Source of the DNA: Acutalibacteraceae bacterium
GTDB lineage: Bacteria; Bacillota; Clostridia; Oscillospirales; Acutalibacteraceae
DNA length: 64,000 bases
NCBI GenBank assembly: GCA_045605825.1
Contig: JAZUQS010000060.1
Span: 302 to 64,301 of the forward strand
Direction: 5' to 3'
The notes beneath the pieces are model-generated. The model did not search any database. It saw only the letters and a list, made by a program, of their open reading frames with translations, and was not told the origin of the DNA. Positions within the stretch are counted from its first letter, which is position 1. Each line of letters starts with the position of its first letter. Positions 12,071 to 35,695 of this stretch are shown here, piece by piece. A program made the position numbers and the translations under genes.

Positions 12071-12274
12071 ATTTCAACCTCCATTTTTGAAGCTTTTATG
12101 ATTAGTTAAATTATAATTTGAAAAAATATAACTGTCAAGAAAAGAGCGTTGAATAAAAAAGTTATTTCAACCAATAATTTTTTGAGAAATATTTTTTTTC
12201 GGTTTACAAATTATTTTACGTGTGATAATATAGTAAAGTATGCACTTATGGATTCACGAAAGGAGGGTTTTACA

Positions 12275-19208: not shown

Positions 19209-19250
19209 TAACTGTTTCAAACAAAAATTCAACTGAAAAACAACTAAAAA

Positions 19251-19295
19251 AACACTTTGCAGTGTTAATTCACTGCAAGGTGTTTTTTGTTTTTG
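19251..19295 (+). terminator. Rho-independent terminator of the giant protein gene
   Basis: Stem AACACTTTGCAGTG / CACTGCAAGGTGTT (one G-U), loop TTAATT, then TTTTTGTTTTTG. Confidence 0.8.
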
Positions 19296-19320
19296 TTCTT
19301 GTGCTTTAATGTGATGCTTT

Positions 19321-19363
19321 AAAAACAAAAAAGCCTGTAAACCCTTATATATCAAGGGATTAC
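19321..19363 (-). terminator. Rho-independent terminator of the hddC-gmhB fusion gene
   Basis: On the minus strand: GTAATCCCTT-GATATAT-AAGGGTTTAC (one mismatch), followed by AGGCTTTTTTGTTTTT. The stem overlaps the TAA stop at 19360-19362. Confidence 0.65.
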
Positions 19364-20619
19364 AAGCTTTCTGAAAACTCTTTTAACGATGAAAAAATTT
19401 GTGTTTTTTCGGGTAGATTTGCATTAGCTTTTTTACCTAAAAAAACGGGAATGCAGCCGGCGTTTATGCCTGCTTCAACGTCTCTTAAAGAGTCACCGAC
19501 CATATACGATTTTTCTAAATCAATATTGAAATCCTTTTGTGCTTTAAAGAGAAGTCCCGGTGCGGGCTTTCTGCAATCGCACTTAATTTTTAATTCTTTT
19601 ATTTCGTCAGGGAAGCCTGAATCAGGATGGTGAGGGCAGTAGTAAATACCGTCAATAAACGCTCCGTTTTCACCTAAAAGAGTTTCAATTCTGTTGTGAA
19701 TTCCGGTGAGTGCTTCGATAGTACATTCACCGCGGGCAACAACGGGCTGATTAGTTGCAATAATTACTAAAAAGCCTAAAGAATGAAGCTTGTTTATAGC
19801 CTCGCAAACGCCGTCGATTAGCTCTATTTCGCAAGGCTTTGTGATGTACCCCTTATGAATGTTTACTGTCCCGTCGCGGTCAAGAAAAACAGCTTTTTGA
19901 GGTTGCTTTTTGTGTTTTTTTGAAACTACACCGTTTTTTATGTCGTTTTCAACGGCTTTCAGCCTGTCGGGAGTGCCCATATCCTTAACGTATTCAAAGG
20001 TTTTATAAGAGTAAATTTTACCTGTTTTTATTGCGGGTGTAATAACCTCTTTGTCTAAATCGGCTTTGCCGTCAAAGCTATACATTTCAAGCAACTTAGG
20101 CGATATTATTCCTACCCCTGCGTTGCATAAATTAGGGTACGCAAAAGGTTTGTTTTCCTTAGGTAAAACACCCGTTATTACGTCACCGTCAGTTAAAAAC
20201 AAGGTGCTGTCAAAGGGGTGATTGTTTGGGTGCGTAAGAAGGGTTGCGAGGGCATTTTTTCCTTTGTGAAATGATAGCATTTCGGAGAGAGAAAAGTTAA
20301 AAATCAAGTCACCGTTACATAGTAAAAAATCCTCGTTTAAGCCTAATTTAAAAAGGGCTCCTGCAGTGCCCAAGGGCTCGTTTTCAACGTAGTATGAAAT
20401 ACTTACGCCAAGGCTTTTTCCGTCATCGAAATAAGCCTTGATTTGTTCGCTTAAATGACCTAAAACGAGAATGAATTCAGTAATTCCCTCGGTTTTTAAA
20501 GCATTAATTTGGTGCTCTAAAACGGGTTTTTCGCATAATTTTATTAATGGCTTCGGCGTGTTTTCGCAAACGTTTTTAAGACGTGTTCCCAAACCGCCGG
20601 CTAAAATAACAGCTTTCAT
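19360..20619 (-). CDS. Fusion protein: sugar-1-phosphate nucleotidyltransferase (HddC-like) plus D,D-heptose 1,7-bisphosphate phosphatase (GmhB-like)
   Basis: Start set to ATG 20619 (AAAGGTGG upstream). N-terminal half has MKAVILAGGLGTRL. C-terminal half has the HAD-IIIA motifs FLDRDGTVN, ATNQP and GDSLRD, plus the GmhB-type Zn loop YCPHHP...CDCRKP. Confidence 0.8.
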   Translation of the reverse strand: MKAVILAGGLGTRLKNVCENTPKPLIKLCEKPVLEHQINALKTEGITEFILVLGHLSEQIKAYFDDGKSLGVSISYYVENEPLGTAGALFKLGLNEDFLLCNGDLIFNFSLSEMLSFHKGKNALATLLTHPNNHPFDSTLFLTDGDVITGVLPKENKPFAYPNLCNAGVGIISPKLLEMYSFDGKADLDKEVITPAIKTGKIYSYKTFEYVKDMGTPDRLKAVENDIKNGVVSKKHKKQPQKAVFLDRDGTVNIHKGYITKPCEIELIDGVCEAINKLHSLGFLVIIATNQPVVARGECTIEALTGIHNRIETLLGENGAFIDGIYYCPHHPDSGFPDEIKELKIKCDCRKPAPGLLFKAQKDFNIDLEKSYMVGDSLRDVEAGINAGCIPVFLGKKANANLPEKTQIFSSLKEFSESL

Positions 20620-20706
20620 ACTACACCACCTTTCGAGGCTAATTGTAGCACAAATTTTTCCCTTTTTCAACGGTGGCTTTCCAAGTCTTTCAATGGTGCG
20701 TTTTCC

Positions 20707-20735
20707 TTGACAAAGTATGGTATCTATGATAGAAT
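20707..20735 (+). promoter_or_regulatory. Sigma-70-type promoter of the 12-gene glycan operon
   Basis: TTGACA (20707-20712), 17-nt spacer, TAGAAT (20730-20735). It lies in the divergent intergenic region and no other terminator is seen before 34626. Confidence 0.6.
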
Positions 20736-20819
20736 TCTATATTGGTAATATATGATATATAATAAACATATTATATGCAAATTTTGTCTATAAAGATAAA
20801 TTTGAACGGAGGGTTATCT

Positions 20820-21755
20820 GTGTCAAATATTTTAGTTACGGGTGGAGCAGGTTATATAGGCTCTGTAATGGTGCCCGAGCTTCTTAAGCTTGGCCACAAC
20901 GTTACTGTTTTAGACTCTTTTTTATATAAACAAGCCTCTTTGCTTGATTGCTGTAAATACGATAGCTTTGAAATAATTAAGGGTGATTGCCGTGACGAAG
21001 AAAATCTTAAAAAAGCAATGGATAATAAAGATTTTATTTTCCCTCTTGCAGCTCTCGTAGGCTTCCCTGTATGCGATCAGGATAAAATTGCAGCCCGAAC
21101 AACAAACCTGGGTGCAGTTGAAACTCTCTTGTCACTTCGCGAAAAAGGTCAAAAAATAATTTTCCCTTGTACAAATAGCGGCTACGGCTTAGGTCAGGGT
21201 CAGAATTACTGCACAGAGGAATCACCCATAACCCCCATATCACTTTACGGCAAAACTAAAATGGCAGCTGAAAAGGCAATTCTTGATTCGGGTGAATCCG
21301 TGGCGTTCAGGTTTGCAACTCTTTTCGGTGCTTCGCCTAGAATGAGGCTGGATTTACTTGTAAACGATTTCGTTTACCGTGCGGTGTTTGACCGCTCACT
21401 TATAGTTTTCGAGGGCCACTTTATGAGAAATTATCTTCACGTAAGAGATGCGGCAAATGCATTTATCTTTGCAATGGATAATTTCGAAAAAATGAAAGGG
21501 CAGACCTATAACTGCGGTTTAAGTGATGCAAACCTTTCAAAGTTAGAGCTTTGCGAAAGAATTAAGGCACAGCTTCCAAAATTTGAATACCTTGAAGCAC
21601 CTATCGGCGTTGACCCCGATAAACGTAATTATCTCGTTTCTAACGAAAAAATTGAGAGCTTCGGCTTTAAGCCCTCGTATTCAATCGACGATGGTATTAA
21701 AGAGCTTATAAAGGCCTACTCGATTATTAAAAATTCTTTTTACGGAAATGTGTGA
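20820..21755 (+). CDS. NAD-dependent sugar epimerase/dehydratase (extended SDR)
   Basis: GTG start at 20820 with GGAGG 7 nt upstream. Rossmann motif VTGGAGYIGS. Catalytic YGKTKMAAE (YxxxK). 311 aa. Confidence 0.8.
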   Translation: MSNILVTGGAGYIGSVMVPELLKLGHNVTVLDSFLYKQASLLDCCKYDSFEIIKGDCRDEENLKKAMDNKDFIFPLAALVGFPVCDQDKIAARTTNLGAVETLLSLREKGQKIIFPCTNSGYGLGQGQNYCTEESPITPISLYGKTKMAAEKAILDSGESVAFRFATLFGASPRMRLDLLVNDFVYRAVFDRSLIVFEGHFMRNYLHVRDAANAFIFAMDNFEKMKGQTYNCGLSDANLSKLELCERIKAQLPKFEYLEAPIGVDPDKRNYLVSNEKIESFGFKPSYSIDDGIKELIKAYSIIKNSFYGNV

Positions 21756-21760
21756 AATAA

Positions 21761-22126
21761 ATGAAGCTTGTTGAAATTTTAAAACCCGATTTCGTACATG
21801 AGGACGAAAGGGGGATTCTTTCTCAGATTACCCATACACCCTACGGTCAGGTGAATTCAGTCTTTACTAAAAAAGGTGCTATAAGAGGAAGATATCATTA
21901 CCACAAAACAACAAAAGAGATTTTTTACATCATTACGGGTGAAATAAAAGTATCGCTTTCTCTTGACGGTGCTTCAGAAGAGCATATTTTCAAAACAGGG
22001 GATATGTTTTTAGTGCCGGAATACGTGCGTCATAACTTTGATTTCCAAGAGGATACATATCTCGTTTCCTTTTACACCTCTTGCGTTGAGCTTCCCGACG
22101 GCACAATGGATATAGTAAGCGATTAG
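21761..22126 (+). CDS. Small cupin-fold protein (WbuC / CapF C-terminal-domain-like, possible sugar epimerase accessory)
   Basis: 121 aa. Cupin His-containing strands (RGRYHYHKTTKEIFYIITGE ... VPEYVRHNF). Position directly after an SDR mirrors the split CapF-type arrangement. The function is an inference. Confidence 0.5.
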   Translation: MKLVEILKPDFVHEDERGILSQITHTPYGQVNSVFTKKGAIRGRYHYHKTTKEIFYIITGEIKVSLSLDGASEEHIFKTGDMFLVPEYVRHNFDFQEDTYLVSFYTSCVELPDGTMDIVSD

Positions 22127-22144
22127 TTTTTTGGAGAATGCATA

Positions 22145-24064
22145 ATGAAAAAGAACGTGTATTTAATACAACCTACCTATATGAATGCATCTGTTGTGCA
22201 TCTTCCTTACGCAATTGGTGCTTTAGCTTCGTATGCCTGGAAATTTCAGGATATTTGCGATAGCTATGATTTAAAGGGTATTTTCTTTTTGAGAGATAAG
22301 CTTTCAGATATCGTAGAAAAGTTAGACAATCCCTTTTTAATCGGCTTTTCAAACTACATCTGGAACTTTGAATATAACAAAAAATTAGCCGAAGAGGTTA
22401 AAAAAGCCTACCCCGAATGTATTATCGTTTTCGGCGGTCCTCAGATATCTGAGGATTCAGGGCTTTTTGAAGAATGTCCTTTTATTGATTTTCTTATGTA
22501 CTACGAGGGTGAGGTACCCTTCCGTGATTTATTAAGAGCTTACGACGGCAAGCTTCAGTTAAATGAGGTAAGCAACATAGCCTACCGCTTACCCGACGGC
22601 TCAATTAACACAACGGAATTTAAGGCAGCTGAAATATCAGATTTCCCGTCACCCTACGAAAGCGGATTTTTTGACAGAATTATTGAAGAAAATCCCGATA
22701 TAGATTTTATACCTCTCATCGAAACAAACAGAGGTTGCCCTAATAAATGTGCATATTGCAGCTGGGGTAAAATAAAAACCCGTGTGCGTATGTTCCCCCT
22801 TGAAAGAGTTTTTGCGGATATTGAGTGGGTAAGTAAGCACAATAAAGAGTTTTTAGGCTTTGCCGATGCAAACTTCGGTCTTTTCCCCCGTGATGAAAAG
22901 ATTGTTGATAAAATAATTGAGTGTTATCACGAAACGGGTTATCCTAAAAAATTCCAAGTATCCTATTCAAAAGAAACGGGCGACAGAGTTTTTAACATTA
23001 CTAAAAAGCTTAACGAGCACGGTATGGATAAAGGCGTTACCCTTTCTTTCCAGTCAATGTCGAAAATTGTTCAGGAAAATATCGGTAGATCTAATATGGA
23101 TGTTGAATATTACAAAGCCTTGTTGCAGAAATATTCAGAAGCGAAAATTCCTACTTATACAGACCTTATTTTAGGTCTTCCCGGTGAAACTCTTGAAAGC
23201 TTTAAGGACGGTATTGACGAATTGCTTGAGCACGGTCAGCATACTTCTCTTTTCGTGCATTTGTGCGAATGGTTGCCGTTAGCCGAAATGGGCAAAAAGG
23301 AATATATGGACAAGCACGGAATCGGCTTTAGTAAAGTTCCTTTGAACCAACCTCACAGAAGCTCTTCTGATGAAAACGACGTTCAGGAATTTTCAAGAAT
23401 TGTTACCTCAACTTCAACAATGGATGAAAACGAGTGGAAGGCTATGGTAATGTTTTCAACCTGTGCTTTATGCTTTCATCATTTAGGTCTTCTTCAGCTT
23501 GTTGCTTTATATCTGCATTATGAAAAAGGCGTAAAATACAGCGATTTTTATAGCGACCTGCTTTCTCATCTTTTAACTGAAGAAAATATCGGTGAGGCTT
23601 TCATAAGAGTTAAAAAGCAAACTGACGACGTTATAGAGAAAAATGAGTCGGTAGTTGTTTTTGACAGGATGTTTGGCGATATAGCCTGGCCTTTTGAAGA
23701 ATATGCTTTCTTAAAAACAGTTTCAAAGAAGGATGCCTTCTACGAAAATATTGAAAGCTTTTTAGAAAAATATATCGACGATGAAAAGCTTCGCAAGGAT
23801 TTAGTACGTTATCAGAATTTCGTTGTGAAGGATATCAACGTTTCCGAAAAGCTTTTTGAGGGAGAGTACGATTGGAAAAATTATTTTCAGTCAATTCTCG
23901 TTGATGATATTCATCCCGTGCTTGAAAAAAGAAACGTGTGTTACTCGGTAAAGGATGAAAGAGTTACTCATTCCTGGCCCGAATATGCCGAAAAGGTTTT
24001 ATGGTTCGGCAGACGAGGCGGTAAGAATATCTACACTTCGGAAATCACAGAAGAAAAAATATAA
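22145..24064 (+). CDS. Cobalamin-binding-domain (class B) radical SAM enzyme, paralog 1
   Basis: 639 aa. N-terminal Rossmann-like segment (IIVFGGPQIS), ETNRGCPNKCAYCSWG (CX3CX2C), LILGLPGET, and a long C-terminal extension ending in LWFGRRGG. Confidence 0.85.
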   Translation: MKKNVYLIQPTYMNASVVHLPYAIGALASYAWKFQDICDSYDLKGIFFLRDKLSDIVEKLDNPFLIGFSNYIWNFEYNKKLAEEVKKAYPECIIVFGGPQISEDSGLFEECPFIDFLMYYEGEVPFRDLLRAYDGKLQLNEVSNIAYRLPDGSINTTEFKAAEISDFPSPYESGFFDRIIEENPDIDFIPLIETNRGCPNKCAYCSWGKIKTRVRMFPLERVFADIEWVSKHNKEFLGFADANFGLFPRDEKIVDKIIECYHETGYPKKFQVSYSKETGDRVFNITKKLNEHGMDKGVTLSFQSMSKIVQENIGRSNMDVEYYKALLQKYSEAKIPTYTDLILGLPGETLESFKDGIDELLEHGQHTSLFVHLCEWLPLAEMGKKEYMDKHGIGFSKVPLNQPHRSSSDENDVQEFSRIVTSTSTMDENEWKAMVMFSTCALCFHHLGLLQLVALYLHYEKGVKYSDFYSDLLSHLLTEENIGEAFIRVKKQTDDVIEKNESVVVFDRMFGDIAWPFEEYAFLKTVSKKDAFYENIESFLEKYIDDEKLRKDLVRYQNFVVKDINVSEKLFEGEYDWKNYFQSILVDDIHPVLEKRNVCYSVKDERVTHSWPEYAEKVLWFGRRGGKNIYTSEITEEKI

Positions 24065-24072
24065 GAGGTTGT

Positions 24073-24789
24073 ATGGAAAACAATTATTCTTTATCTGTTG
24101 CATTCTGTACCATTAACGAATCAAGCTCTCTTATAAGTGCTTACGAAAAGGTTAAGGGCTGTAGCTGTGCAGACGAGTATCTTTTTATCGTTGCAAAAAG
24201 TGCTACTGAGGAATGTAAAAAAACAGTTGAAATGCTTTGCGAAAATGAAAAATGCAGATTCGTTTTTCAAGACGGCTACGGCTTGGGCAATGCAATAAGA
24301 AAGTCCTTTGACGAGGTAAAGGGTACTCACCTTATTTTATGGCCTGCCGACGACGATATGGATATTAATGCACTTCCCGAAATGGCAAAGCTTTCAAAAA
24401 TGAACCCTGAAAAAATTGTTACCGTGAGCCGTTGGAAAGCTGATAAAGGCTTTGAGGGCTACGGTAAAATAAGAACGGTTATAAATTATATTTCTCAAAA
24501 GGCGTTTGCGATTCTTTTTAAATCAGATTTAACTGATTTCACTAACCCTACGCAGATTGCCCCCGTGAGCGTTTACAGAAAAATAAAATGGCAGGGTAAC
24601 GACTTCGACTTCATGCCTGAAATGATTTTCAAGCCCTTAAAAATCGGTTGCGAATTTATAGAGGTGCCCTGCAAAAGTATTCCGAGAAAAGACGGAAAAA
24701 CAAACAGCAGCTTTAAGAAGTTTGCCAAATATTATCCGGTGATTTTTAAAATATATAAAATGAAGCCGGAAGACGTAATGAAGGTGTAA
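24073..24789 (+). CDS. Small soluble family-2 glycosyltransferase (polyprenyl-phosphate sugar synthase-like: DPM1/GtrB/ArnC size class)
   Basis: 238 aa with no TM segment. GT-A-like N-terminus (SVAFCTINES) and acidic motif WPADDDMD. Intercalated between rSAM paralogs 1 and 2 with 8-nt and 2-nt gaps. Confidence 0.6.
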   Translation: MENNYSLSVAFCTINESSSLISAYEKVKGCSCADEYLFIVAKSATEECKKTVEMLCENEKCRFVFQDGYGLGNAIRKSFDEVKGTHLILWPADDDMDINALPEMAKLSKMNPEKIVTVSRWKADKGFEGYGKIRTVINYISQKAFAILFKSDLTDFTNPTQIAPVSVYRKIKWQGNDFDFMPEMIFKPLKIGCEFIEVPCKSIPRKDGKTNSSFKKFAKYYPVIFKIYKMKPEDVMKV

Positions 24790-24791
24790 AA

Positions 24792-26717
24792 ATGAAACGA
24801 GTGTATTTTATACAAGCAAACCTTTCCTATGGTAAGGCTTATTATCTTCCATATGCAACGGGTTGCCTGGCTGCATATGCATGGCAATTTGAAAGTATAA
24901 ATACAGAATATGAAATAGCAGAATTTATATTCAAGAGAGACCCCGTAGAAAAGGTTATGGCAGAGTTAAAAGAGCCGTCGGTTGTTGCTTTTTCCTGCTA
25001 CACCTGGACCTTTGAGTATAATAAAACACTCGCAAAAAGAATAAAAGAAAAATATCCCGATTGTCTTATAATCTTCGGCGGTCACAGTATCTCTGAAAAC
25101 GTTGACGTTTTTCCTGAGCTTCCCTTTGTTGACGTACTTATGTACGGCGAGGGCGAAAGAGATTTTAAATCTTTGTTAGAGCAGTTTAACACAGAAGAAA
25201 AGGATTTTTCTGGAATCCCAAATATCGCTTACAGAAAAGACGGTAAAATTTTCACCGCCGAAAGAAAATTCTACGATAATTTAGATGGCTTTGTTTCGCC
25301 TTATCTTGAGGGTTATTTTGATAAAATAGTAGAAGCAAATCCCGAGCAGGAATTTTGTGCGGTAATTGAAACAAACAGAGGTTGCCCCTATAACTGTGCT
25401 TACTGCGATTGGTGTTATACGGTTGATATCCGTCAATTTCCTATAGACAAGGTCAAGGAAGAAATCGTTTGGTGCAGTAAAAACAGAGTTGAATATATTT
25501 TCTGTGCCGATTCAAACTTCGGTATTTTAAAACGCGACCTTGATATTGCAAAATTTGTTGTAGAGGTAAAAAAAGAGAGAGGCTATCCGCATATTTTCAA
25601 TAACTGCTTTGCTAAAAACAGTAACGATACGGTTTTTGAAATTTCAAAGCTCTTTTACGATAACAGACTTAATAAAGCAGCAACCCTCGCTTATCAGACT
25701 GTTTGCGATGAGGCTCTTAAAAACGTAAACCGTAAAAACTTTACAATGGAAGCTTTTTCGGATTTAGTTACTAAATATAACGAGCACAATATCCCCACCT
25801 ATACGGAAATGATTTTAGGTCTTCCGGGAGAAACCTACGATAGCTTCTGCGACGGTCTTTGCAGGCTTATCGAGGCAGGTCAGCAAACTGCCCTTACTGT
25901 TTACTATTGCCAAGTTTACCCCAACTCACTTATGGGTAAAAAAGAATACCGTGATTTACACGGTATTGAAACGGCAAAGGTGCCCCTTAACTATTTACAT
26001 TCAACAATGCCTGAGGAAGAGGATATTACAGAGTATACCGAGCTTATAGTTGCAACCCGTGATATGCCCTTTGAGGATATGATGAAATCGATTATGTTCT
26101 GCACTTGCTTACAGTGCTTCCACCATATCGGTCTTTTAAAATATTTCTCAATTTACGTAAGGCATGAGCTTAATATAAGCTACCTTGAATTTTACAAACG
26201 CTTGCTTGATTTTATTTTCAAATCTGAAAACACCTTCTTAAACGAATTGTTTAACAGATTTAAAGAGCAGTGCAGCGACTTCTCAAACGGTGAATGGTCC
26301 TATTACAACGAAAAATTTGGTGATATAGGCTGGTTCCTTGAGGAAGGTGCATATATGGAAATAGTTGCAAACTACGAAACCTTCTGGAAAGAAATCATAC
26401 CTTTCCTTAAAGAATTTGATATTGCACCTGAAATTTTCGATGAATTAACAAAATTCCAGAAATTTGTTATCCGCCTTCCCGAGCAAGAAAAAATATCCTG
26501 CGAATTTGAATATGATTTTTACAATTACTTCCACAATGCTCTTTCGCAGAGCTATAAGCCTTTAGAGGCAAAGAAAAATAAAATTGAGGTTGATTTACCT
26601 AACCCCGTTTACAATTGGAAGGATTATGCACGAAAAATCGTTCTCTTTGCAAAAAGAAGAGGCGATACAATCGTAATTAACGATAAAAAGTATCTTACAG
26701 TAACTTACGGAGAGTAA
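24792..26717 (+). CDS. Cobalamin-binding-domain (class B) radical SAM enzyme, paralog 2
   Basis: 641 aa. LIIFGGHSIS, ETNRGCPYNCAYCDWC, MILGLPGETY, and C-terminal VLFAKRRGD. Confidence 0.85.
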   Translation: MKRVYFIQANLSYGKAYYLPYATGCLAAYAWQFESINTEYEIAEFIFKRDPVEKVMAELKEPSVVAFSCYTWTFEYNKTLAKRIKEKYPDCLIIFGGHSISENVDVFPELPFVDVLMYGEGERDFKSLLEQFNTEEKDFSGIPNIAYRKDGKIFTAERKFYDNLDGFVSPYLEGYFDKIVEANPEQEFCAVIETNRGCPYNCAYCDWCYTVDIRQFPIDKVKEEIVWCSKNRVEYIFCADSNFGILKRDLDIAKFVVEVKKERGYPHIFNNCFAKNSNDTVFEISKLFYDNRLNKAATLAYQTVCDEALKNVNRKNFTMEAFSDLVTKYNEHNIPTYTEMILGLPGETYDSFCDGLCRLIEAGQQTALTVYYCQVYPNSLMGKKEYRDLHGIETAKVPLNYLHSTMPEEEDITEYTELIVATRDMPFEDMMKSIMFCTCLQCFHHIGLLKYFSIYVRHELNISYLEFYKRLLDFIFKSENTFLNELFNRFKEQCSDFSNGEWSYYNEKFGDIGWFLEEGAYMEIVANYETFWKEIIPFLKEFDIAPEIFDELTKFQKFVIRLPEQEKISCEFEYDFYNYFHNALSQSYKPLEAKKNKIEVDLPNPVYNWKDYARKIVLFAKRRGDTIVINDKKYLTVTYGE

Positions 26718-26720
26718 CCA

Positions 26721-28649: not shown

Positions 28650-28697
28650 TATAATGCACAGTTAAAAATACAAATAAAAAACACTTCGGGGTAATTT

Positions 28698-30605
28698 ATG
28701 AAAAACATTTATTTTGTTCAGGTTGGGTTCGAATTTGACGGCTCGGTTTACCTTCCGTATGCTGTAGGCACAATAATTGCCTATTGCAAAAAAGAACCGC
28801 AAATAACAAGTGAATACAGCTTTTCAGATATCATTTTCAAAAGAGAAAAGTTGGCAGATGCTATAGCGAAAATAAAGGAGCCTTATATGGTTGCTTTCTC
28901 CTGCAGTGTCTGGAATATTGAGTACAATAAAACTCTTGCAAAAATGATAAAAGAAAAATACCCTCAGTGTTTAATTTCCTTTGGTGGTCACAGCGTTGAC
29001 GAAAGCGGTGTTCTTATTGAAAGTGAGGATTATATTGATATTCTTACTTTCGGCGAGGGCGAAAGAACCTTTTCCGATTTACTCATAAACCTTAAAAATG
29101 ATGAAATAGGCTTAACAAATAACATTTCATACAGAAAAGGCGACAGTATTATTAAAACCGAGAGAAGCTACTGTGTATCTCTTGAGGATTTCCCGTCACC
29201 CTATACAACCGGCGTGTTTGATGATATTGTTAAAAACAGTCAAGGGTTGGAATTGCTTTCTGTTCTTGAAACTACAAGAGGCTGTCCTTATTCCTGTGCA
29301 TACTGCGATTGGTGTGCGGGTAAGAAAATGCGATTTTTCCCGATGGAAAAGGTAATAGCCGAAATCAAATGGCTTTCAGAGAATAAAATAACCTATTGCT
29401 TCTGTGCTGACTCAAACTTCGGTATGTTTGACAGAGATATCGAAATAGCCCAGCATCTTATTGAAGCAAAAAAGAAAAACGGCTATCCCGAGGTTTTCAG
29501 ACCTTGTTACGAGAAAAACAGCGACGAAAGAGTGTTTAAAATTTGCAGTGCCTTGAATAGTGTAGGTATGGACAAGGGTGCTACAATGGCATATCAGACT
29601 CTTTCAGAGGAAGCCTTGAAAAACATAGGTAGAAAAAATCTTACAATGGAGCATTTTTCTAACCTTATGAAAAAATATAACGAAGCAGGAATTCCTACTT
29701 ACTCCGAGTTGATTTTAGGGCTTCCCGGTGAAACGAAGGAAAGCTTCTGCATGGGTATATGTAAGCTTCTTGAAAACGGTCAGCATAATTCAGTCAGCGT
29801 TTATCACTGTGAGGTTTTGCCTAATTCAGAGCTTGCCCAACCCGAGTACATTAAAAAGCACAAGATAGAAACGATAAAGGTTGCCTTTAACCATATTCAC
29901 AGTGCACCTAAAAAGGATGAAGAGGTTAAAGAGTATTCGTATATCGTTCGCTCAACAGCTACTCTTGACCGTGACGATTGGGTATACGCAAACCTATTTT
30001 CAATTTGTTTGCAATGTTTCCATAGTTTAGGCGTGCTTCGTTATTTTGCTATGTATCTTCATTCTTTGGGTGAGGTTACTTATTACGATTTTTACACAGC
30101 TTTATTGAACTACATTTTCGAAAGCGACGGAAAGCTTAATAAAATGTGGACTCTCTTTAAAGAGAAATATGAAAATTCTCTTTCAGGTAATTGGAATTAC
30201 TACGACGAAAAATTCGGTAACGTAACCTGGTTTTTCGAAGAGGGTGCATTTATTGAAATTGCATCAAATTACAATGAATATTTGGAAGAATTACTTGTAT
30301 TTCTTAAAAAATACGATTTTCCTGAAGACGTTTTCAGCGAGCTTTTAAAATATCAAAAGCTTCTTTTGAAAAAGCCCTTTGAAAAGGGTGCAACTGAAGA
30401 ATTCAGTTATGATTTCTATAGCTTCTTTGACGGTATTATAAAAGGTCAGGAAAAGACTTTAGAAAAACAGAAAACAAAAATAAAGGTTACGCCAAAAAAT
30501 ATTTATGATGAAGTTTCACGTTATGCAAAAGAGGTCGTTTGGTTTGGAAGACGCAGAGGTGCAACTATCTACGGTAATGACGAGGTAACCTGCGAAACAG
30601 TTTAA
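28698..30605 (+). CDS. Cobalamin-binding-domain (class B) radical SAM enzyme, paralog 4
   Basis: 635 aa. LISFGGHSVD, ETTRGCPYSCAYCDWC, LILGLPGETK, and C-terminal VWFGRRRG. Confidence 0.85.
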   Translation: MKNIYFVQVGFEFDGSVYLPYAVGTIIAYCKKEPQITSEYSFSDIIFKREKLADAIAKIKEPYMVAFSCSVWNIEYNKTLAKMIKEKYPQCLISFGGHSVDESGVLIESEDYIDILTFGEGERTFSDLLINLKNDEIGLTNNISYRKGDSIIKTERSYCVSLEDFPSPYTTGVFDDIVKNSQGLELLSVLETTRGCPYSCAYCDWCAGKKMRFFPMEKVIAEIKWLSENKITYCFCADSNFGMFDRDIEIAQHLIEAKKKNGYPEVFRPCYEKNSDERVFKICSALNSVGMDKGATMAYQTLSEEALKNIGRKNLTMEHFSNLMKKYNEAGIPTYSELILGLPGETKESFCMGICKLLENGQHNSVSVYHCEVLPNSELAQPEYIKKHKIETIKVAFNHIHSAPKKDEEVKEYSYIVRSTATLDRDDWVYANLFSICLQCFHSLGVLRYFAMYLHSLGEVTYYDFYTALLNYIFESDGKLNKMWTLFKEKYENSLSGNWNYYDEKFGNVTWFFEEGAFIEIASNYNEYLEELLVFLKKYDFPEDVFSELLKYQKLLLKKPFEKGATEEFSYDFYSFFDGIIKGQEKTLEKQKTKIKVTPKNIYDEVSRYAKEVVWFGRRRGATIYGNDEVTCETV

Positions 30606-30617
30606 ATCAGATTTGGG

Positions 30618-31877
30618 GTGAGGACGATAAAAAGCATAAAAACCTTTACCAATAAGCATTATTACGGGCTTTGTCTGTTTGCATTTTTATTTATATATTG
30701 TATAGTTGTCCCCACCGAGGGTAGACCGTGGATTGTTAATGACGCAACCTATAGCTTTTATGCAATAGATTTCAGTGTAGGCTTTTGCTCAAGAGTTATT
30801 CAGGGCGCGTTGTACAACCTTATTTTCAGAACCCCCGACCATATAACCGTTTCAATTTATCTTATCGGTGTTTTTGTCATCACCTTTGGTGCTGTAAGCT
30901 TTTTAGCTGAAAAGTTCATTAAAAACACTGATGCTCAATACAGAAAATCGGCAATTATAATTACGTTGTTTTTCCTTACAGGTCCCGCAACCTTTGCGGT
31001 GTTAGTACCCGTTTTTGGAATGATAGATGTTTTCTGGGTTTTTGCTACGGCTTTAAGTATACTTTGCTTGCAAAACAAGAAGGTGTATTTTCTTGTTGTT
31101 CCGTTAGCGGTATTTATGGTGTTTGTTTATTACGGTGCAACTCTTTGCTACGTTCCGCTTTTAGCAATTATGTTGCTTTATAAGATATCGGTAACAGAGG
31201 AAAGAAAAGAAAAACGTTATCTTACTGCAATATTCTTTGCAACGGTTGCTCTCACAATTTTCTTTACCGTGTATTTCGTAGTTTTTGAGCGTTCAAACCT
31301 TACTATGACTATGGAAGAATTTGATAAGTTCCTTGTTGGCAGGGGCGTTAGCGAGGGTGATTTGTATTATTACAACTTCAGCTACTACCGTGATATAGAT
31401 GGTTTTGAGGAAAACGGTTTCCTTGAGGTTCCCGAGTTTGATGCAGGATCTTCACCCTCCGAGGTAGTCAAGGTTCTTTTCCAGCAGGCTTGGATTTCAA
31501 TTTTCGTAAAAGAATTTACCTACGTTACATTTATAGTTGCGCTTTTAATTTTACCTATTCTCGTATTTATTTATAAATTCCTTATAACCTTTTTCAAGAA
31601 AGCAAAGGGTAACAACGTGAAAAGATTTTCATTGTTGTGTGCTATGGCACTTTTTCCCTTTGTAGTTGTAGCAGGCTTTTGCTTCTCAACTGACGTTGTA
31701 AGGTGGATAGGAAACGCATTTTTACCCACTTTTGCATTGTTTATGTATATACTCTATAAGGAAAGAGCTTGGGCAATAGAGCTCGTTCACAATTCTTTGA
31801 CTTCCATCGGCGCAACAACTCTCATACCTTATTATTTAGTTTATTCTTTAACGGTATTCCTGCCCGATTTAAGTTGA
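30618..31877 (+). CDS. Polytopic membrane protein of unknown family (about 10 TM; candidate GT-C-like transferase or polymerase)
   Basis: 419 aa, hydrophobic throughout, with one ~65-aa acidic/aromatic loop (MTMEEFDKFLVGRGVSEGDLYYYNFSYYRDIDGFEENGF...). GTG start 12 nt after, and in frame with, the rSAM-4 stop. No clear SD, which suggests translational coupling. Confidence 0.6.
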   Translation: MRTIKSIKTFTNKHYYGLCLFAFLFIYCIVVPTEGRPWIVNDATYSFYAIDFSVGFCSRVIQGALYNLIFRTPDHITVSIYLIGVFVITFGAVSFLAEKFIKNTDAQYRKSAIIITLFFLTGPATFAVLVPVFGMIDVFWVFATALSILCLQNKKVYFLVVPLAVFMVFVYYGATLCYVPLLAIMLLYKISVTEERKEKRYLTAIFFATVALTIFFTVYFVVFERSNLTMTMEEFDKFLVGRGVSEGDLYYYNFSYYRDIDGFEENGFLEVPEFDAGSSPSEVVKVLFQQAWISIFVKEFTYVTFIVALLILPILVFIYKFLITFFKKAKGNNVKRFSLLCAMALFPFVVVAGFCFSTDVVRWIGNAFLPTFALFMYILYKERAWAIELVHNSLTSIGATTLIPYYLVYSLTVFLPDLS

Positions 31878-31907
31878 TGAAAATCCGTATTTTTAGGGGG
31901 AAATGAA

Positions 31908-32699
31908 ATGAAAGCTAAAACAATTAAATTAACTTTCTGGTTTTTGTTTATAACGTTTATCAGATTTTTCCCTCAGTTAGAGTTACTTATTGAGGTGGAA
32001 TATTATATTTATCTTACGGCTATTCTTGTAAGTGCTTTATGTATTTGCCTTATACCTAAAAGAATTGTTGGCGGTATCATTGGTGTTTTAATAACCGTCG
32101 GTGTTTCGGTTTACAGTCCTGAGTATTTCCTTTTTGCACTTCCCGTGGTGTTGCTTATTTATGCCCATGGTGAAATCGTTTCTTGGAGCAATAAGCTTAA
32201 CGAAACTGAAAGCAGTGAGGTTAAGGCGAAAAGCAAAAAGAAAAACAAAGCTAAAAACCAAAAGAAAGATATAAAAGATTTTATCAGCTGTATAATTTGC
32301 GGTGTAGCGGTTGTGTGTAGCGGTTTGCAGTTTGTGTTTTTAGATACGGACCGCCCAAGAGAGCATAAAGACACAATTGGTGATTACGGATATATAATGT
32401 TTTATGCCTTGTTCTTAATCGCATTGATTGTAGTAGCTTTTGCAATAAAATCAACAAACAAAAAGCCGATAAACTCACAAATGAGCTTACAGTATAAAGT
32501 TTTTTATATTGCTTCTTTCGTTTGCTTAGCTTTGCAGGTTGTGTCAATATATTTAAGTGCTCAGACATCAACAATTACAAATAGGGTCGAGTTTCATTAT
32601 TGGTTTTTATTTGTAATAGCAATTATTTTAAATAAAGATTTTTATCTTGATGAATTGATAAATAAATTCACTCTGTCATCAATGAAAGACAGAGGGTAA
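31908..32699 (+). CDS. Polytopic membrane protein of unknown family with a Lys-rich loop
   Basis: 263 aa. AGGGGGA RBS. About 6-7 TM segments. Central loop SSEVKAKSKKKNKAKNQKKDIKD. Confidence 0.55.
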   Translation: MKAKTIKLTFWFLFITFIRFFPQLELLIEVEYYIYLTAILVSALCICLIPKRIVGGIIGVLITVGVSVYSPEYFLFALPVVLLIYAHGEIVSWSNKLNETESSEVKAKSKKKNKAKNQKKDIKDFISCIICGVAVVCSGLQFVFLDTDRPREHKDTIGDYGYIMFYALFLIALIVVAFAIKSTNKKPINSQMSLQYKVFYIASFVCLALQVVSIYLSAQTSTITNRVEFHYWFLFVIAIILNKDFYLDELINKFTLSSMKDRG

Positions 32700-32762
32700 A
32701 CAGATAAATAGGGGATAATACGGGCAAAGCGGTGAGCCCATTCTGTAGGTTGTGGTGAAGAA

Positions 32763-33644
32763 ATGATATTGATAGTCGGTTGTGGCTTTTTAGGAAGTTA
32801 CCTTTTAAAGCATATACTGAATGAAACAAATGAAGCCGTTATTGCAACGGTAAGAAATACAGAAAAAATCCCCCGTGTAGACGGAGCAAAGCTTATAGAA
32901 TGTGATATTTCAAGCGAAGAGGATTTAAAAAGTCTTGCAGATGCTTTCAAGGGTGAAGAATTAAAGGTGTTTTACTTTGCCGCTTGTCACAATATTGATT
33001 TTCTATACGAAAACATTGAAAAGGGCAAAGAAATAAATATCACCGCCTTAAAAAACTTTATTTCTTATATACCTAATATAAAAGAATTCTATTTTGCATC
33101 TACGGATTGCGTTTACGGTGAAGGTGAAAATAAAGATTACCGATTTAAAGAAACAGATGCTTTAATTCCTATAAACGAATACGGCAAACAAAAAGCCGAG
33201 GCAGAAAAAATAGTGATTGAAAACGGTTTTACTGTTTTAAGATTACCTTTTATGTTAGGCAAGTCACTTTCTTCAACGCCCCATTTTTACGACAAAATTA
33301 CCGCCTCATTAAAAAATAATGAAGAGGTTGAAATGATTGACGGAATGTACCGTTCTGTGTTAAGCTATTCTCAAGCGGCAGAGCTTATATATTCTTTGTC
33401 GCTTTTAAAAGAGAAGCCTCAGGTTATAAACGTCTGCTCAGATGAGTCTTTGAGTAAATACGATATGGGCTGTATTCTGGCAGAAAAGCTTGGTGCTGAT
33501 AAGAGTTTAATAAAAAAGATTTCCGAAGACGAGGGTAAGAAATTTTTTAAGGATAAAAGAGTTTCTTTCGGTGCTATGGATAACTCGGTTCTTAAAGCTT
33601 TACTTAATAAAGAAAAAATTACGTGGGAGGTAGAAAAATGCTGA
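32763..33644 (+). CDS. NAD(P)-dependent sugar reductase/epimerase (RmlD-size SDR)
   Basis: 293 aa. Rossmann motif ILIVGCGFLGSY. Catalytic YGKQKAEAE (YxxxK). Confidence 0.7.
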   Translation: MILIVGCGFLGSYLLKHILNETNEAVIATVRNTEKIPRVDGAKLIECDISSEEDLKSLADAFKGEELKVFYFAACHNIDFLYENIEKGKEINITALKNFISYIPNIKEFYFASTDCVYGEGENKDYRFKETDALIPINEYGKQKAEAEKIVIENGFTVLRLPFMLGKSLSSTPHFYDKITASLKNNEEVEMIDGMYRSVLSYSQAAELIYSLSLLKEKPQVINVCSDESLSKYDMGCILAEKLGADKSLIKKISEDEGKKFFKDKRVSFGAMDNSVLKALLNKEKITWEVEKC

Positions 33645-34615
33645 TTACAAGAACACCGTTCAGAGTTTCTTTTTTCGGTGGCGGAACAGATTATTATGAA
33701 TATTTTTCTGAATTCGGCGGCAGTGTGCTTTCCACAACTATTGATAAATATTGTTATCTTACAATACGTAAGCTTCCACCGTTTTTTGAGCATAAAAATC
33801 AGCTTACATATTCGAAAATTGAAAGATTTAATGAAACTGATGAAATTCAGCATCCTCTTGTAAGAGCGGCTCTTGAGTATATGCCTACTGACCGTATTCA
33901 GATTTCCTACGATGCAGATTTACCTGCAGGATCAGGTATAGGCTCAAGCTCATCCTTTGCGGTTGGTCTTCTTCAAAGTCTTCACGCTCTTAAAGACGAG
34001 TACCCCGATAAAATGGTGCTTGCAAAGGAAGCGATACACCTTGAAAGAGTAATGTGTAACGAGGGTGGTGGCGTTCAGGATCAGGTTGCCGCAGCCTTCG
34101 GCGGTCTTAACCGTATTGACTTTACAAAAGACGGTTATACAGTTACACCCGTTGAAATATCAAAGGAAAGACTTGATGAATTTCAAAGCAATTTAATTCT
34201 CTTGTTTACGGGCTTTACAAGGTATTCGGGAATTATTGCAACAGAGCAACAAAAAGGTATTCCATCAACCCTTAATCAGCTACACGAAATGAAAGCCCTT
34301 GTTGATAAAGCAGAGGATATATTAAAAAACGGAAACCTTGACGATTTCGGCAGACTACTTGACCACACGTGGCAGTTAAAACGCTCTTTATCCGATTATA
34401 TAAGTAATTCGGAAATTGACGAAATGTATCAAAAAGCAAAGGCTAACGGAGCATTGGGCGGTAAAATTCTCGGTGCAGGCGGTGGCGGCTTTATGCTTTT
34501 ATACGTGCCGAAGGAAAGCCAAGCCAAGCTTATTGAAAGCTTCAGCGATTTAAAAATTATTCCCTTTAAATTCGAAAACGAGGGGACAAAAATCATCGTG
34601 CAAAACGATACGTAA
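33638..34615 (+). CDS. GHMP-family sugar kinase, D-glycero-D-manno-heptose 7-phosphate kinase (HddA)-like
   Basis: Start set to ATG 33638 (GGGAGG upstream; 7-nt overlap with the preceding stop). MLITRTPFRVSFFGGGTDY N-terminus, GHMP motif LPAGSGIGSSSSF, and C-terminal GAGGGGF. Confidence 0.8.
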   Translation: MLITRTPFRVSFFGGGTDYYEYFSEFGGSVLSTTIDKYCYLTIRKLPPFFEHKNQLTYSKIERFNETDEIQHPLVRAALEYMPTDRIQISYDADLPAGSGIGSSSSFAVGLLQSLHALKDEYPDKMVLAKEAIHLERVMCNEGGGVQDQVAAAFGGLNRIDFTKDGYTVTPVEISKERLDEFQSNLILLFTGFTRYSGIIATEQQKGIPSTLNQLHEMKALVDKAEDILKNGNLDDFGRLLDHTWQLKRSLSDYISNSEIDEMYQKAKANGALGGKILGAGGGGFMLLYVPKESQAKLIESFSDLKIIPFKFENEGTKIIVQNDT

Positions 34616-34625
34616 AGTAAAAATT

Positions 34626-34668
34626 AATGCATCCTGACAAATAATCAGGATGCATTTTTTGTATTTTT
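34626..34668. terminator. Bidirectional rho-independent terminator ending the glycan operon
   Basis: 12-bp perfect stem AATGCATCCTGA / TCAGGATGCATT with loop CAAATAA, then TTTTGTATTTTT. Convergent with the CE15-like gene ending at 34667. Confidence 0.8.
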
Positions 34669-35695
34669 ATCTGTGCATATTAACATATTTAATAAGCTTG
34701 TTCCAGTCCTCTCGGCTGAAATAGTGAAGACCTTTTCTCATATGGTAGCCGATATCACCCTCAAAAAACATATCGTTGATTTCGGGGTATCTGTTTTCAT
34801 ATTTAAAGCCGTTTTTAAAAGCAGGACTTGCGGCAACGCAGGAAAGCATTTCTGAACGGGGGTCTGCCCATAAATCCTCGGATGCACTGCCGATAACTGC
34901 GTGTCTTGGTGCAATTGAAGCTATAAGATAATGCTGGTCAAAGGGCATAGCCGATTCATTATCTCTGTATTTATTATAATTTTCGCAAAACCAGAAGGGG
35001 AATCTGTCGGTGATTTCTTTTACTGTTTCGCCACGGGTCCAACGGGCGAGAGAAGCACCCGAGCAACCTGAATCATTTGAATAAGCAAATTTAAATCTTT
35101 CGTCAAATGCACCTGCAACGAGGGCGGTTTTGCCAAGTCTTGAGTGACCGCAAACTGTACCGCAGTCAATAAGAAGTTTATCTTGAAGAGTTTGAGCGTA
35201 GTCCATAACTCTTGATGCAGCCCAAGCCCACATAGCAATTTTACCCGAGTCAGTAGCGTTTCTTTTTCCGTCGGGGAAAAGAATACCTGCAAAACCGTTT
35301 GTAAAGTCGCCGTCGTCAGAGGTTATATCGTTGTAATAAACAGAAAAAACTGCAAAGCCGTTGTCGATAATTTCTTCAGTCGGCATATATCTGTCCGGGT
35401 TTAAATCTCTGAAATTTACGTGAATAAAGAATGGGTGTTTTTCATTGTCGGCAGGTAAATTTGCAAAAAACGGGAAAGAGAATTCTTTGCCGTTTACAAT
35501 GCAATTTGCGGTAACCTTGTTGCATACCGCTTTACCTGCACAAAATTTAGGAATAACCTCTTCCTCGACCTCAAAAGAAATGCTTTCTGGCTTTGGCGGC
35601 ATATAGCCGTAAATTTCTTTCTGTAAAATTTCAAGCATCTCTTCACGAGGTAAAAGAGGGGGTAATTTTAATTCATCAAGTATTTTTAAAAGCAT
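34667..35695 (-). CDS. Alpha/beta hydrolase, CE15 glucuronoyl-esterase-like
   Basis: 342 aa. Nucleophile region VCGHSRLGKTAL resembles the G-C-S-R-x-G motif of CE15. No signal peptide. Confidence 0.5.
   Translation of the reverse strand: MLLKILDELKLPPLLPREEMLEILQKEIYGYMPPKPESISFEVEEEVIPKFCAGKAVCNKVTANCIVNGKEFSFPFFANLPADNEKHPFFIHVNFRDLNPDRYMPTEEIIDNGFAVFSVYYNDITSDDGDFTNGFAGILFPDGKRNATDSGKIAMWAWAASRVMDYAQTLQDKLLIDCGTVCGHSRLGKTALVAGAFDERFKFAYSNDSGCSGASLARWTRGETVKEITDRFPFWFCENYNKYRDNESAMPFDQHYLIASIAPRHAVIGSASEDLWADPRSEMLSCVAASPAFKNGFKYENRYPEINDMFFEGDIGYHMRKGLHYFSREDWNKLIKYVNMHR

Follow-up and report, generated by a model that had tools for sequence, protein, structure and literature searches.

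A conserved cassette of cobalamin-dependent radical SAM methylases and a small glycosyltransferase in gut Clostridia: a possible route to a C-methylated, lipid-carried heptose

What is made by a gene cluster in which four cobalamin-dependent radical S-adenosylmethionine (rSAM) proteins surround a small family 2 glycosyltransferase (GT2), with enzymes of heptose activation and two polytopic membrane proteins encoded next to them? The question is raised by a locus of an Acutalibacteraceae bacterium (assembly GCA_045605825.1, contig JAZUQS010000060.1, positions 302 to 64,301), which was analyzed here within the whole stretch of 64,000 nucleotides (nt), in the following called the window. According to the reading we prefer, the locus is a self-contained cassette which would make an unusual sugar donor and decorate an extracytoplasmic acceptor with it, and no capsule would be built. 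A tailored heptose would be C-methylated by radical chemistry and loaded onto polyprenyl phosphate, and a new family of GT-C-like enzymes would transfer it outside the cell; to this reading we assign a probability of about 0.5. The novelty of the locus lies in how its parts are combined: three to four methylases of the iterative type form a portable block around a GT2 lacking a membrane anchor, and this block is joined to unannotated families of polytopic transferases.

The methylase-glycosyltransferase core

In an original prediction made from the DNA sequence of the window the four rSAM proteins (rSAM1 to rSAM4; Table 1) were merely listed. They are assigned here to the TokK-type cobalamin methylases and represent the most distinctive part of the locus. 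Each of them contains the Pfam domains PF02310 (B12-binding) and PF04055 (radical SAM), the former being weak in rSAM3 (E=6e-4). The best NCBIfam family for all four is KedN5, which reaches 229-264 bits (rSAM1 234, rSAM2 264) against a cut-off of 700 bits and lies ahead of every other NCBIfam family by more than 150 bits. Far stronger matches were obtained with characterized enzymes, namely of rSAM2 with TokK (E=7e-97) and CysS (E=7e-54) and of rSAM1 with TokK (7kdx, E=4e-83). TokK, ThnK and CysS, and partly also Swb9 and PctJ, methylate several times in succession and have three motifs in common: S-x-Y-x-W under the corrin ring (W76 of TokK), a Trp one residue past the Cys loop (W215) and D-A-N replacing GGE (PMC9204698). 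In our alignment the residues S69/W73, W207 and D241/N243, which align to W76, W215 and D250-A-N252 of TokK, are invariant in all four paralogs, and so are the cysteines of the CX3CX2C motif. Judged by these sequence features, rSAM1 to rSAM4 belong to the TokK/ThnK/CysS clade of cobalamin-dependent radical SAM methylases.

For a comparison across genomes, 185,579 species genomes were scanned with a profile of the GT2, which yielded 26 loci, and a metagenome scan added six. Altogether about 40 related loci, numbered with the prefix L, were found, all of them in uncultured Oscillospirales. The hosts of the loci from the genome scan are uncultured Acutalibacteraceae, Oscillospiraceae, Ruminococcaceae and unclassified Clostridia, known as metagenome-assembled genomes (MAGs); records that name an animal host give goat and water-deer gut. 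The closest relative, L009/L010, is 92-99% identical on the amino acid level across the proteins of the cassette. The full heptose cassette occurs in the same order in at least 15 species and in different genomic neighborhoods, and further metagenome contigs carry it as well; the locus is thus real beyond chance.

Gene order within the cassette allowed a distinction between constant and exchangeable parts. The series rSAM1-GT2-rSAM2-rSAM3 is kept in almost every locus that is long enough, and its reading frames usually overlap or almost touch. A different rSAM paralog occupies one of the later core positions in L019, L030 and L033. Some loci contain the core without sugar or membrane genes (L008/L023, L015, L018 and L022). 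In L006/L029 it is accompanied by genes for an RmlA-like transferase, a second GT2, FdtA and DegT, a set of the deoxythymidine diphosphate (dTDP)-aminosugar type, and L019 and L030 encode five rSAMs and two GT2s. No protein of the cassette is better conserved than rSAM2; SDR1, rSAM3 and the HddA-like kinase likewise rank at the top, and SDR2 and the two membrane proteins rank lowest, SDR1 and SDR2 being short-chain dehydrogenases/reductases. We therefore describe rSAM1-GT2-rSAM2-rSAM3, on the basis of these alignments, as a constant and mobile core, to which the heptose genes, rSAM4 and the membrane pair are added as one of several plug-in modules. In the synteny comparison that had been proposed in order to decide whether the block is accessory, its order is kept in at least 15 species, and the heptose genes are a variable addition to the core and not part of it. 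A gene of the DedA/VTT type directly follows the minimal core in L008/L023 (L008 14649-15338), and another one is located near the cassette in L001 (15258-15983). DedA proteins are implicated in the recycling of undecaprenyl phosphate, which would fit a lipid-carrier intermediate.

Since the four rSAM paralogs are 38-40% identical to one another and each keeps its position and orthology across species, they are to be regarded as old, specialized copies and not as recent duplicates. In three independent MAGs rSAM2 and rSAM3 form a single open reading frame (ORF) of 1286-1290 amino acids (aa), located at 10723-14595 in L024, 801-4661 in L031 and 10723-14583 in L032; these fusions suggest that the two proteins act as a unit. 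The fourth paralog, rSAM4, accompanies the heptose genes whenever those occur. Its place is taken in non-heptose variants by a B12 radical SAM protein of a fifth type with about 500 aa (L006 10705-12231, L031 4707-6209, L032 14642-16147 and L034 14623-16128). The copies of this fifth type are 67-72% identical to each other and about 23-26% identical to rSAM1 to rSAM4.

The GT2 itself is poorly described by sequence families: Pfam gives a weak match of 32 bits, and a sequence search of the PDB gave no match. Among 5.8 billion proteins its homologs form 97 clusters, all of them about 240 aa long, at least 42% identical and derived from Clostridia MAGs. An AlphaFold model based on 36 of the 97 homologs reached a predicted local distance difference test (pLDDT) value of 91. 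When this model was compared with the PDB by Foldseek, all of the 13 best neighbors were polyprenyl-phosphate glycosyltransferases, namely ArnC (E=2e-11, TM-score 0.76), DPMS of Pyrococcus (TM-score 0.81) and GtrB. A DDD motif is located at residues 93-95, with D93 invariant. The model thus favors the predicted function of a polyprenyl-phosphate sugar synthase, and the protein is probably a polyprenyl-phosphate glycosyltransferase with an ArnC/DPMS/GtrB-like catalytic domain without transmembrane (TM) anchor. Being devoid of a TM helix, such an enzyme would be peripheral or held at the membrane by a partner.

Heptose genes and the membrane pair

Which sugar would be delivered to this core in the window? 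The original prediction had read the HddA-like kinase, GmhB and HddC as the route to a guanosine diphosphate (GDP)-linked heptose, and the comparison with sequence families and structures strengthens this assignment. For the kinase the best NCBIfam family is HddA, with 159.5 bits against a cut-off of 600, and its four best relatives in the PDB are without exception heptose-phosphate kinases (E=1e-44 for WcbL, 4usm, to 2e-36; 3k85 and 4n3o are among them), acting on heptose 7-phosphate. The GmhB part of the fused protein exceeds the cut-off of TIGR00213 (150.6 versus 149.6 bits), reaches 169.9 bits with NF006506 (cut-off 178) and matches the structure of GmhB from E. coli (2gmw) with E=6.5e-37. 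Its HddC-like half contains a clear NTP_transferase domain; mannose-1-phosphate guanylyltransferases (E=1e-24 to 1e-28) are closer relatives than HddC (5xhw, E=6e-16), and the HddC model of NCBIfam gives 98 versus a cut-off of 300. A gene for the isomerase GmhA had been reported as absent from the locus, and none was found in the 64 kb, neither by tblastn with an E. coli GmhA query nor as an SIS domain in the Pfam scans. In the relative L020 about 650 nt separate hddC-gmhB from a gmhA homolog (SIS_2), which is encoded on the other strand. Taken together, the sequence comparisons support the assignment of the locus to heptose well.

Further evidence derives from SDR1, which matches the PDB entry 6vo6 with E=2.9e-101 and about 55% identity over 308 residues (18-325). 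We take 6VO6 to be Cj1427, the GDP-heptose C4 dehydrogenase of Campylobacter; on this assumption, the match would be the strongest single piece of evidence for the heptose genes. The C4 dehydrogenase of Campylobacter is 97-99% conserved among the serotypes carrying the gene and the C4 reductases differ (PMC10680097). The cassette displays the same pattern of a constant dehydrogenase and a variable reductase: in the relative L013 SDR1 is 89% and SDR2 63% identical to the proteins of the window, and across the loci SDR1 is among the most conserved proteins, whereas SDR2 evolves much faster. SDR2 is an extended SDR by its Pfam match RmlD_sub_bind, with weak PDB matches to RmlD and MAT2B, and is probably the C4 (or C3) ketoreductase which sets the final stereochemistry.

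Between SDR1 and the core lies the cupin gene, which is always found directly behind the SDR1 gene. The original scheme of oxidation, epimerization and reduction by SDR, cupin and SDR fits the gene set, apart from the kind of cupin. A C3/C5 epimerase of the RmlC type (Cj1430 or MlghB) was rejected for this 121-aa protein, as RmlC-type structures were matched with E>0.1 only. The matches it does give are weak and point to the C-terminal cupin of Cap5F (E=0.004), QdtA and KdgF. The C-terminal cupin domain of Cap5F epimerizes 4-keto sugar nucleotides at C3, and the protein of the cassette is probably an epimerase or ketoisomerase acting on such a 4-keto sugar nucleotide.

The larger membrane protein of the locus comprises 419 aa (here called TM419) and has no match in Pfam or NCBIfam. 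A word-indexed search yielded 22 homologs, and a profile search of 1.84 billion proteins 590 clusters with E<=1e-3, of which 185 reach E<=1e-30; one distant member shows a sub-threshold match to DUF6057. The AlphaFold model (pLDDT 83.6, predicted TM-score 0.86) was compared with known folds by Foldseek, and a high probability of homology was obtained only for GT-C enzymes, namely PglB (0.99, two entries) and the C-mannosyltransferase DPY19 (0.99), with lower values for AftA and EmbC. The two PglB entries, DPY19 and AftA are also the four top matches and EmbC holds rank 34; E-values range from 7.8e-3 to 1.5 and TM-scores from 0.24 to 0.48. According to hydropathy and the positive-inside rule the N-terminus is inside, and the loop 34-77 as well as an acidic loop of 81 residues are outside. 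Asp51 in the first outside loop, which contains short helices in the model, is invariant in 18 sequences of the family down to 30% identity. The prediction of a GT-C-type protein is thus supported, at a weak level (E of about 8e-3 at best), by the only probable folds and by Asp51: fold and topology, which follows the GT-C pattern, make TM419 a weakly supported candidate for the founding member of a new GT-C-like transferase family. For a Wzy or Wzx homolog, which would have spoken for another role, no support was obtained, since TM419 has no Pfam match and neither Wzy, Wzx, WaaL nor SEDS proteins are among the 50 fold matches listed.

TM419 is accompanied by the 263-aa protein. In every locus in which the downstream region was mapped, an ORF of 232-288 aa with about seven TM segments follows the TM419-family gene, or the last copy in the case of tandem genes, and this position is kept even where the similarity to the 263-aa protein of the window has decayed. 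The 263-aa protein is therefore regarded as a fast-evolving, obligate partner of TM419, which may serve as a flippase or an accessory subunit. Among the heptose-type cassettes that reach past the last rSAM, all but L021 carry a TM419-family gene after rSAM4. In L003 and L004 TM419-family gene and partner occur without sugar genes beside ABC-2 transporter genes, and in L003 the pair is followed by a surface protein of 2355 aa. Several non-heptose variants encode either a TM419-family protein or an unrelated protein with 11-14 TM segments and the motif G..DE..Y after the first of them.

Several additional observations concern these membrane proteins. In L033 four tandem TM419 paralogs, which are 29-34% identical to the protein of the window, follow the rSAM-GT2 core (14604-19644). 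The second family, with 627-642 aa, 11-14 TM segments and an invariant G..DE..Y, is found in L031 (6244-8127), L032 (16189-20040), L034 (17097-19025) and L040 (7758-9662); it has no Pfam match, and a kinship with TM419 was rejected because profile-profile comparison shows none. A few members of the TM419 family (P0142 and P0164) are fused to an N-terminal CotH kinase domain and reach about 900 aa in total, and in L006 a free-standing CotH gene (219-1742) adjoins the rSAM-GT2 core. This hints at a functional link between the TM419 family and CotH-type kinases.

Architecture of the locus and its surroundings

All features of the locus are listed in Table 1. Promoter, terminator and gene order were found where they had been predicted; the number of co-directional genes has to be corrected from 12 to 11, since 12 is the total of the locus including the divergent gene on the minus strand. 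The gaps between the 11 plus-strand genes (20775-34615) range from -22 to 63 nt, so that they form a single operon.

Table 1. Genes and regulatory elements of the locus (positions refer to the window)
Feature	Position	Strand	Basis
Bidirectional terminator hairpin between dockerin gene and hddC-gmhB	19247-19288	.	18-bp stem, T runs on both strands
hddC-gmhB fusion, NTP-transferase (HddC-like) and GmhB phosphatase	19360-20670	-	436-aa ORF; Pfam NTP_transferase and HAD
hddC-gmhB promoter TTGAAA-17-TACAAT, extended -10	20642-20670	-	10/12 match
Operon promoter TTGACA-17-TAGAAT, extended -10 TG	20707-20735	+	11/12 match; best promoter match of the region
SDR1	20775-21755	+	PDB 6vo6 match
Cupin, 121 aa	21761-22126	+	Pfam Cupin_2, Polysacc_synt_C
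rSAM1	22145-24064	+	B12-binding and Radical_SAM domains
GT2, 238 aa, soluble	24073-24789	+	Pfam GT2; AlphaFold 2 fold
rSAM2	24792-26717	+	TokK-clade match
rSAM3	26721-28649	+	Domains and invariant clade motifs
rSAM4	28698-30605	+	Domains and invariant clade motifs
TM419, 419-aa polytopic membrane protein	30618-31877	+	AlphaFold 2 fold, topology
263-aa membrane protein, about 7 TM segments	31908-32699	+	Pairing with TM419
SDR2, RmlD-like	32763-33644	+	Pfam RmlD_sub_bind
HddA-like GHMP kinase	33623-34615	+	NCBIfam HddA, PDB heptose kinases
Bidirectional terminator at operon end	34626-34656	.	12-13 bp stem, T runs on both strands

As a class, promoter-like sites are not enriched in the region (42 found versus 51.6 expected). 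The operon promoter is convincing because its -35 element and the sequence TATGATA(G/A)A have been retained in seven species-level relatives in which the intergenic DNA around them has diverged. Of the minus-strand promoter the -35 block (TTTTCAACGG on the plus strand) is invariant, and the -10 element varies at one position in two of the seven relatives. The hddC-gmhB gene probably starts at an ATG at 20619, which is kept in seven relatives and gives a protein of 419 aa. A scan with Rfam revealed no riboswitch or other RNA element in the locus. The comparison of base composition with the flanks, which had been suggested along with the prediction, gave a GC content of 37.3% for the locus versus 39.6% for the rest of the window, with GC values at third codon positions (GC3) within the range of the neighbors; on these grounds recent horizontal transfer was rejected.

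Genes for polymer assembly had been reported as missing, and this holds for the whole window: when the ORFs of the 64 kb with 150 aa or more, and the two small ORFs in and beside the operon, were searched with Pfam, neither Wzx nor Wzy was found, nor were a priming phosphoglycosyltransferase, a chain-length regulator or an ABC exporter. In the flanks of those full cassettes that were mapped ORF by ORF there is likewise no priming transferase and no exporter.

Beyond the first terminator of Table 1 lies a convergent neighbor with 1661 aa in the longest ORF (1652 aa in the original prediction), which encodes a signal peptide and two C-terminal dockerin repeats. At the other end the operon converges with a glucuronyl-esterase-like gene (GCE_fung, 34667-35695, minus strand), which is also present in L001. 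Further downstream, a 1557-aa protein with a signal peptide and Flg_new, Big_3 and SASA esterase domains (37219-41892, minus strand) and two adjacent tRNA genes (43227-43403, minus strand) were identified. The stretch 47476-49485 (plus strand) encodes an Acyl_transf_3 acyltransferase (338 aa, seven TM segments) and a soluble GT2 (321 aa, 142 bits). It has the lowest GC content (about 33.5%) and the highest GC skew of the window and is possibly a separate islet for glycan modification. Its GT2, located 13 kb downstream of the operon, was considered as a second GtrB-like enzyme and rejected, as it is an ordinary GT2 without TM segment. Upstream, a 506-aa protein with radical SAM and SPASM domains (12149-13669, plus strand) is encoded beside a GH123 glycoside hydrolase (10445-12070, minus strand). 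It is unrelated to the B12 rSAMs, and candidate roles are those of a maturase, e.g., of the anaerobic sulfatase-maturating type, or of a peptide modifier.

Proposed pathway, alternatives and significance

The pathway we propose builds on gene content, enzyme classes, fold relationships and conservation of the cassette, and assigns to it presumed substrates and a presumed order of steps. In the first, well supported step HddA-like kinase, GmhB and HddC-like nucleotidyltransferase would convert heptose 7-phosphate into a nucleoside diphosphate-linked D-glycero-D-manno-heptose, probably the GDP form, with GmhA encoded elsewhere. SDR1 would then oxidize C4, the best supported part of the second step; the cupin would presumably epimerize or isomerize the 4-keto sugar, and SDR2 would reduce it again. 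In the third step the four rSAMs, the class of which is assigned as described above, would methylate unactivated carbons of a presumed sugar substrate in the cytoplasm, either on the nucleotide-linked or on the lipid-linked sugar. The tight coupling of GT2 and rSAMs, which is invariant whatever the sugar genes are, favors the lipid-linked stage; that the rSAMs, like the enzymes acting early, are highly conserved speaks for the nucleotide-linked one. In the fourth step the anchor-less GT2 would, as its fold suggests, load the sugar onto polyprenyl phosphate. The weakest step is the last one, in which, after flipping, TM419 and its seven-TM partner would pass the modified heptose to an extracytoplasmic acceptor. 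Candidate acceptors are a wall polymer, a polymer resembling lipoteichoic acid or a surface protein. Since genes for polymer assembly are absent, a decoration with single sugars from a polyprenyl-phosphate donor is to be expected. A further, tentative formulation would have the heptose methylated at several carbons, and thereby branched or chain-extended, on or next to the carrier supplied by the anchor-less GT2 and installed by the GT-C-like family, with the core as a portable module for radical methylation of sugars.

Several points weigh against a C-methylated, lipid-carried heptose. All hosts are uncultured MAGs, and the activities are predicted from sequences or models. Kinase, HddC domain and rSAMs remain below the equivalog or subfamily cut-offs of NCBIfam. 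The methylases need not act on heptose, because the rSAM-GT2 core also occurs without heptose genes or with genes of the dTDP-aminosugar type. GT-A enzymes with soluble acceptors rank next in the fold comparison of the GT2, e.g., glucosyl-3-phosphoglycerate synthase with a TM-score of 0.72, and hydropathy indicates no TM segment in its 238 aa, unlike ArnC, GtrB and DPMS with their TM helices. For TM419 no fold match reached E<=1e-3 and no sequence family adds support, and no flippase was identified.

Among the alternatives the best placed, in our estimate an unlikely one, regards the operon as precursor supply for a conventional polymer (capsule, exopolysaccharide, S-layer glycan or a polymer of the wall teichoic acid type), with the GT2 as repeat-unit transferase, TM419 as a Wzy- or WaaL-like protein and the assembly genes elsewhere. 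The ABC-2 genes next to the distant pairs in L003 and L004, which are of the Wzm/Wzt or TagGH type, the four tandem copies in L033, the weakness of the GT-C evidence and the pair of GT2 and Acyl_transf_3 genes downstream would be in line with such a role; however, the GT2 model matches polyprenyl-phosphate monosaccharide synthases best and ahead of GT2s of polymer synthesis, the fold matches listed for TM419 are devoid of polymerases, ligases and flippases of the above-mentioned kinds, neither the window nor the mapped flanks of full cassettes encode a priming transferase or exporter, and the varied neighborhoods across species suggest that the cassette is self-sufficient.

A somewhat less likely alternative is a small molecule or membrane glycolipid as end product, i.e., a methylated sugar lipid linked to polyprenyl phosphate or phosphoglycerate or a secreted glycoconjugate, the polytopic proteins being engaged in export or lipid handling. 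No genes for a prenyltransferase, polyketide synthase, non-ribosomal peptide synthetase, resistance or regulator are found at the locus. Moreover, GT-C-like polytopic proteins with a conserved acidic residue in an outside loop are encoded by the heptose-type cassettes as well as by several variants, and the membrane pair evolves fast in comparison with the cytoplasmic enzymes, as is typical of surface-exposed, serotype-like functions. What this alternative does account for is the minimal rSAM-GT2 core without a membrane transferase nearby and the similarity of the GT2 fold to glucosyl-3-phosphoglycerate synthase. KedN5, the family closest to the rSAMs in NCBIfam, belongs to the kedarcidin pathway, and the substrates of GenK, GenD1 and MoeK5 are sugars, that of moenomycin being linked to a lipid phosphoglycerate. 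The characterized enzymes of the TokK clade serve natural products (carbapenems and cystobactamids), and GenK, GenD1 and MoeK5 methylate carbon centers in the biosynthesis of gentamicin and moenomycin (PMC9204698).

Improbable, in our view, is a particular case of the C-methylated heptose pathway, in which a secreted dockerin or cohesin protein would serve as acceptor and linkers of a cellulosome- or amylosome-like system would be O-glycosylated. The dockerin neighbor had been proposed as a conceivable target in the original prediction. This receives no support, because the gene is adjacent only in very close, nearly identical relatives (L009-L012) and is not located beside the cassette in L013, L014, L016, L020 and others. 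A strong bidirectional terminator separates it from hddC-gmhB, and there is no direct evidence for any acceptor. In its favor one can mention the neighbor itself with its signal peptide and dockerin repeats, the downstream surface protein with Big_3, Flg_new and SASA domains and the 2355-aa protein of L003, as well as GT-C enzymes of the PMT type, which glycosylate secreted proteins in Gram-positive bacteria; for Caldicellulosiruptor, it is stated in one study that a single glycosyltransferase is required for the glycosylation of secreted cellulases (PMC6151902).

Very unlikely is a non-methylating role of the rSAMs, be it other cobalamin radical chemistry on a sugar (ring contraction, cyclization, epimerization or dehydration, as in OxsB-, BchE- or HpnJ-like enzymes) or the modification of a ribosomally made peptide with post-translational modifications (RiPP) glycosylated by the GT2: non-methylating enzymes of the class are known (OxsB, BchE, HpnJ; PMC9204698), the rSAMs weakly match HpnJ and BchE in NCBIfam, as well as TIGR03975, a family of RiPP methylases, and all four stay under the KedN5 cut-off, but by far the strongest relatives, TokK and CysS, are proven methylases and much closer than RiPP methylases, the three clade motifs are all invariant, gaps of at most 63 nt leave no room for a precursor-peptide gene, and peptidase or RiPP-recognition genes are missing from the locus.

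In comparison with known systems the proposed C-methylated heptose pathway resembles GtrA/GtrB/GtrC, ArnC/ArnT, DPMS/PMT and CsbB/GtcA/YfhO in the ArnC/DPMS/GtrB-like fold of its GT2, in a polytopic protein for which GT-C enzymes are the only probable folds, and in lacking genes for polymer assembly. It differs from them in that the GT2 is devoid of a TM anchor, the membrane transferase falls into no described family, a GtrA-like flippase is lacking and the GT2 gene lies among those of four cobalamin radical SAM methylases. To our knowledge, such an arrangement occurs in none of these systems. The mycobacterial decaprenyl-phosphate-arabinose system (EmbC/A/B and AftA-D) likewise has tandem polytopic paralogs that use one donor, as those of L033 would, and AftA and EmbC are among the fold matches; detectable sequence kinship is absent, TM419 lacks the large periplasmic C-terminal domains, and donor sugar and chemistry are different.

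With the capsular GDP-heptose pathway of C. jejuni (HddA, GmhB, HddC, Cj1427, Cj1430 and Cj1428) the cassette shares the route via kinase, phosphatase and nucleotidyltransferase, the logic of oxidation, epimerization and reduction and the combination of a conserved dehydrogenase with a variable reductase. The cupin, by contrast, resembles the C-terminal domain of CapF, HddC is fused to GmhB, a Gram-positive host carries the genes, and the sugar is apparently transferred to a lipid carrier and not to capsule glycosyltransferases. The C4 reductases of Campylobacter are of the GDP-fucose synthase type, which would set the RmlD-like SDR2 apart from them.

The rSAMs have domain order and all three motifs in common with TokK, ThnK and CysS, with which KedN5, Swb9 and PctJ are grouped. 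The known substrates of this group are carbapenams or aromatic methoxy groups, and the enzymes belong to natural-product clusters of actinomycetes and myxobacteria, whereas here four paralogs are encoded in an operon of gut Clostridia that is devoted to a sugar and a lipid carrier. Other occurrences of cobalamin radical SAM methylases are in antibiotics, pigments, hopanoids and methanogen enzymes. In full-text searches of the literature we found no report of such a cluster or of these methylases in bacterial envelope-glycan synthesis, and no report of them in the synthesis of cell-envelope glycans is known to us. GenK, GenD1 and MoeK5 are a precedent for C-methylation by this class and belong to sequence clusters other than that of TokK (PMC9204698). 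Each of them contributes one methyl group to an antibiotic, and none is coupled to a pair of polyprenyl-phosphate glycosyltransferase and GT-C enzyme.

If the proposed pathway is true, the biosynthesis of bacterial envelope glycans would for the first time be seen to involve radical C-alkylation. Oscillospirales of gut and rumen would display a sugar with methyl branches attached by carbon-carbon bonds, which would be resistant to ordinary glycosidases and chemically new. The cassette would further provide four tractable TokK paralogs with a sugar substrate and a minimal, soluble polyprenyl-phosphate glycosyltransferase, and the unannotated membrane family with its roughly 590 clusters would become a candidate for a new GT-C family. 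In bacteria of the ruminant gut the product could be recognized by phages as their receptor, act as an immune epitope or determine the niche, and the cassette would tie the synthesis of a surface glycan to vitamin B12.

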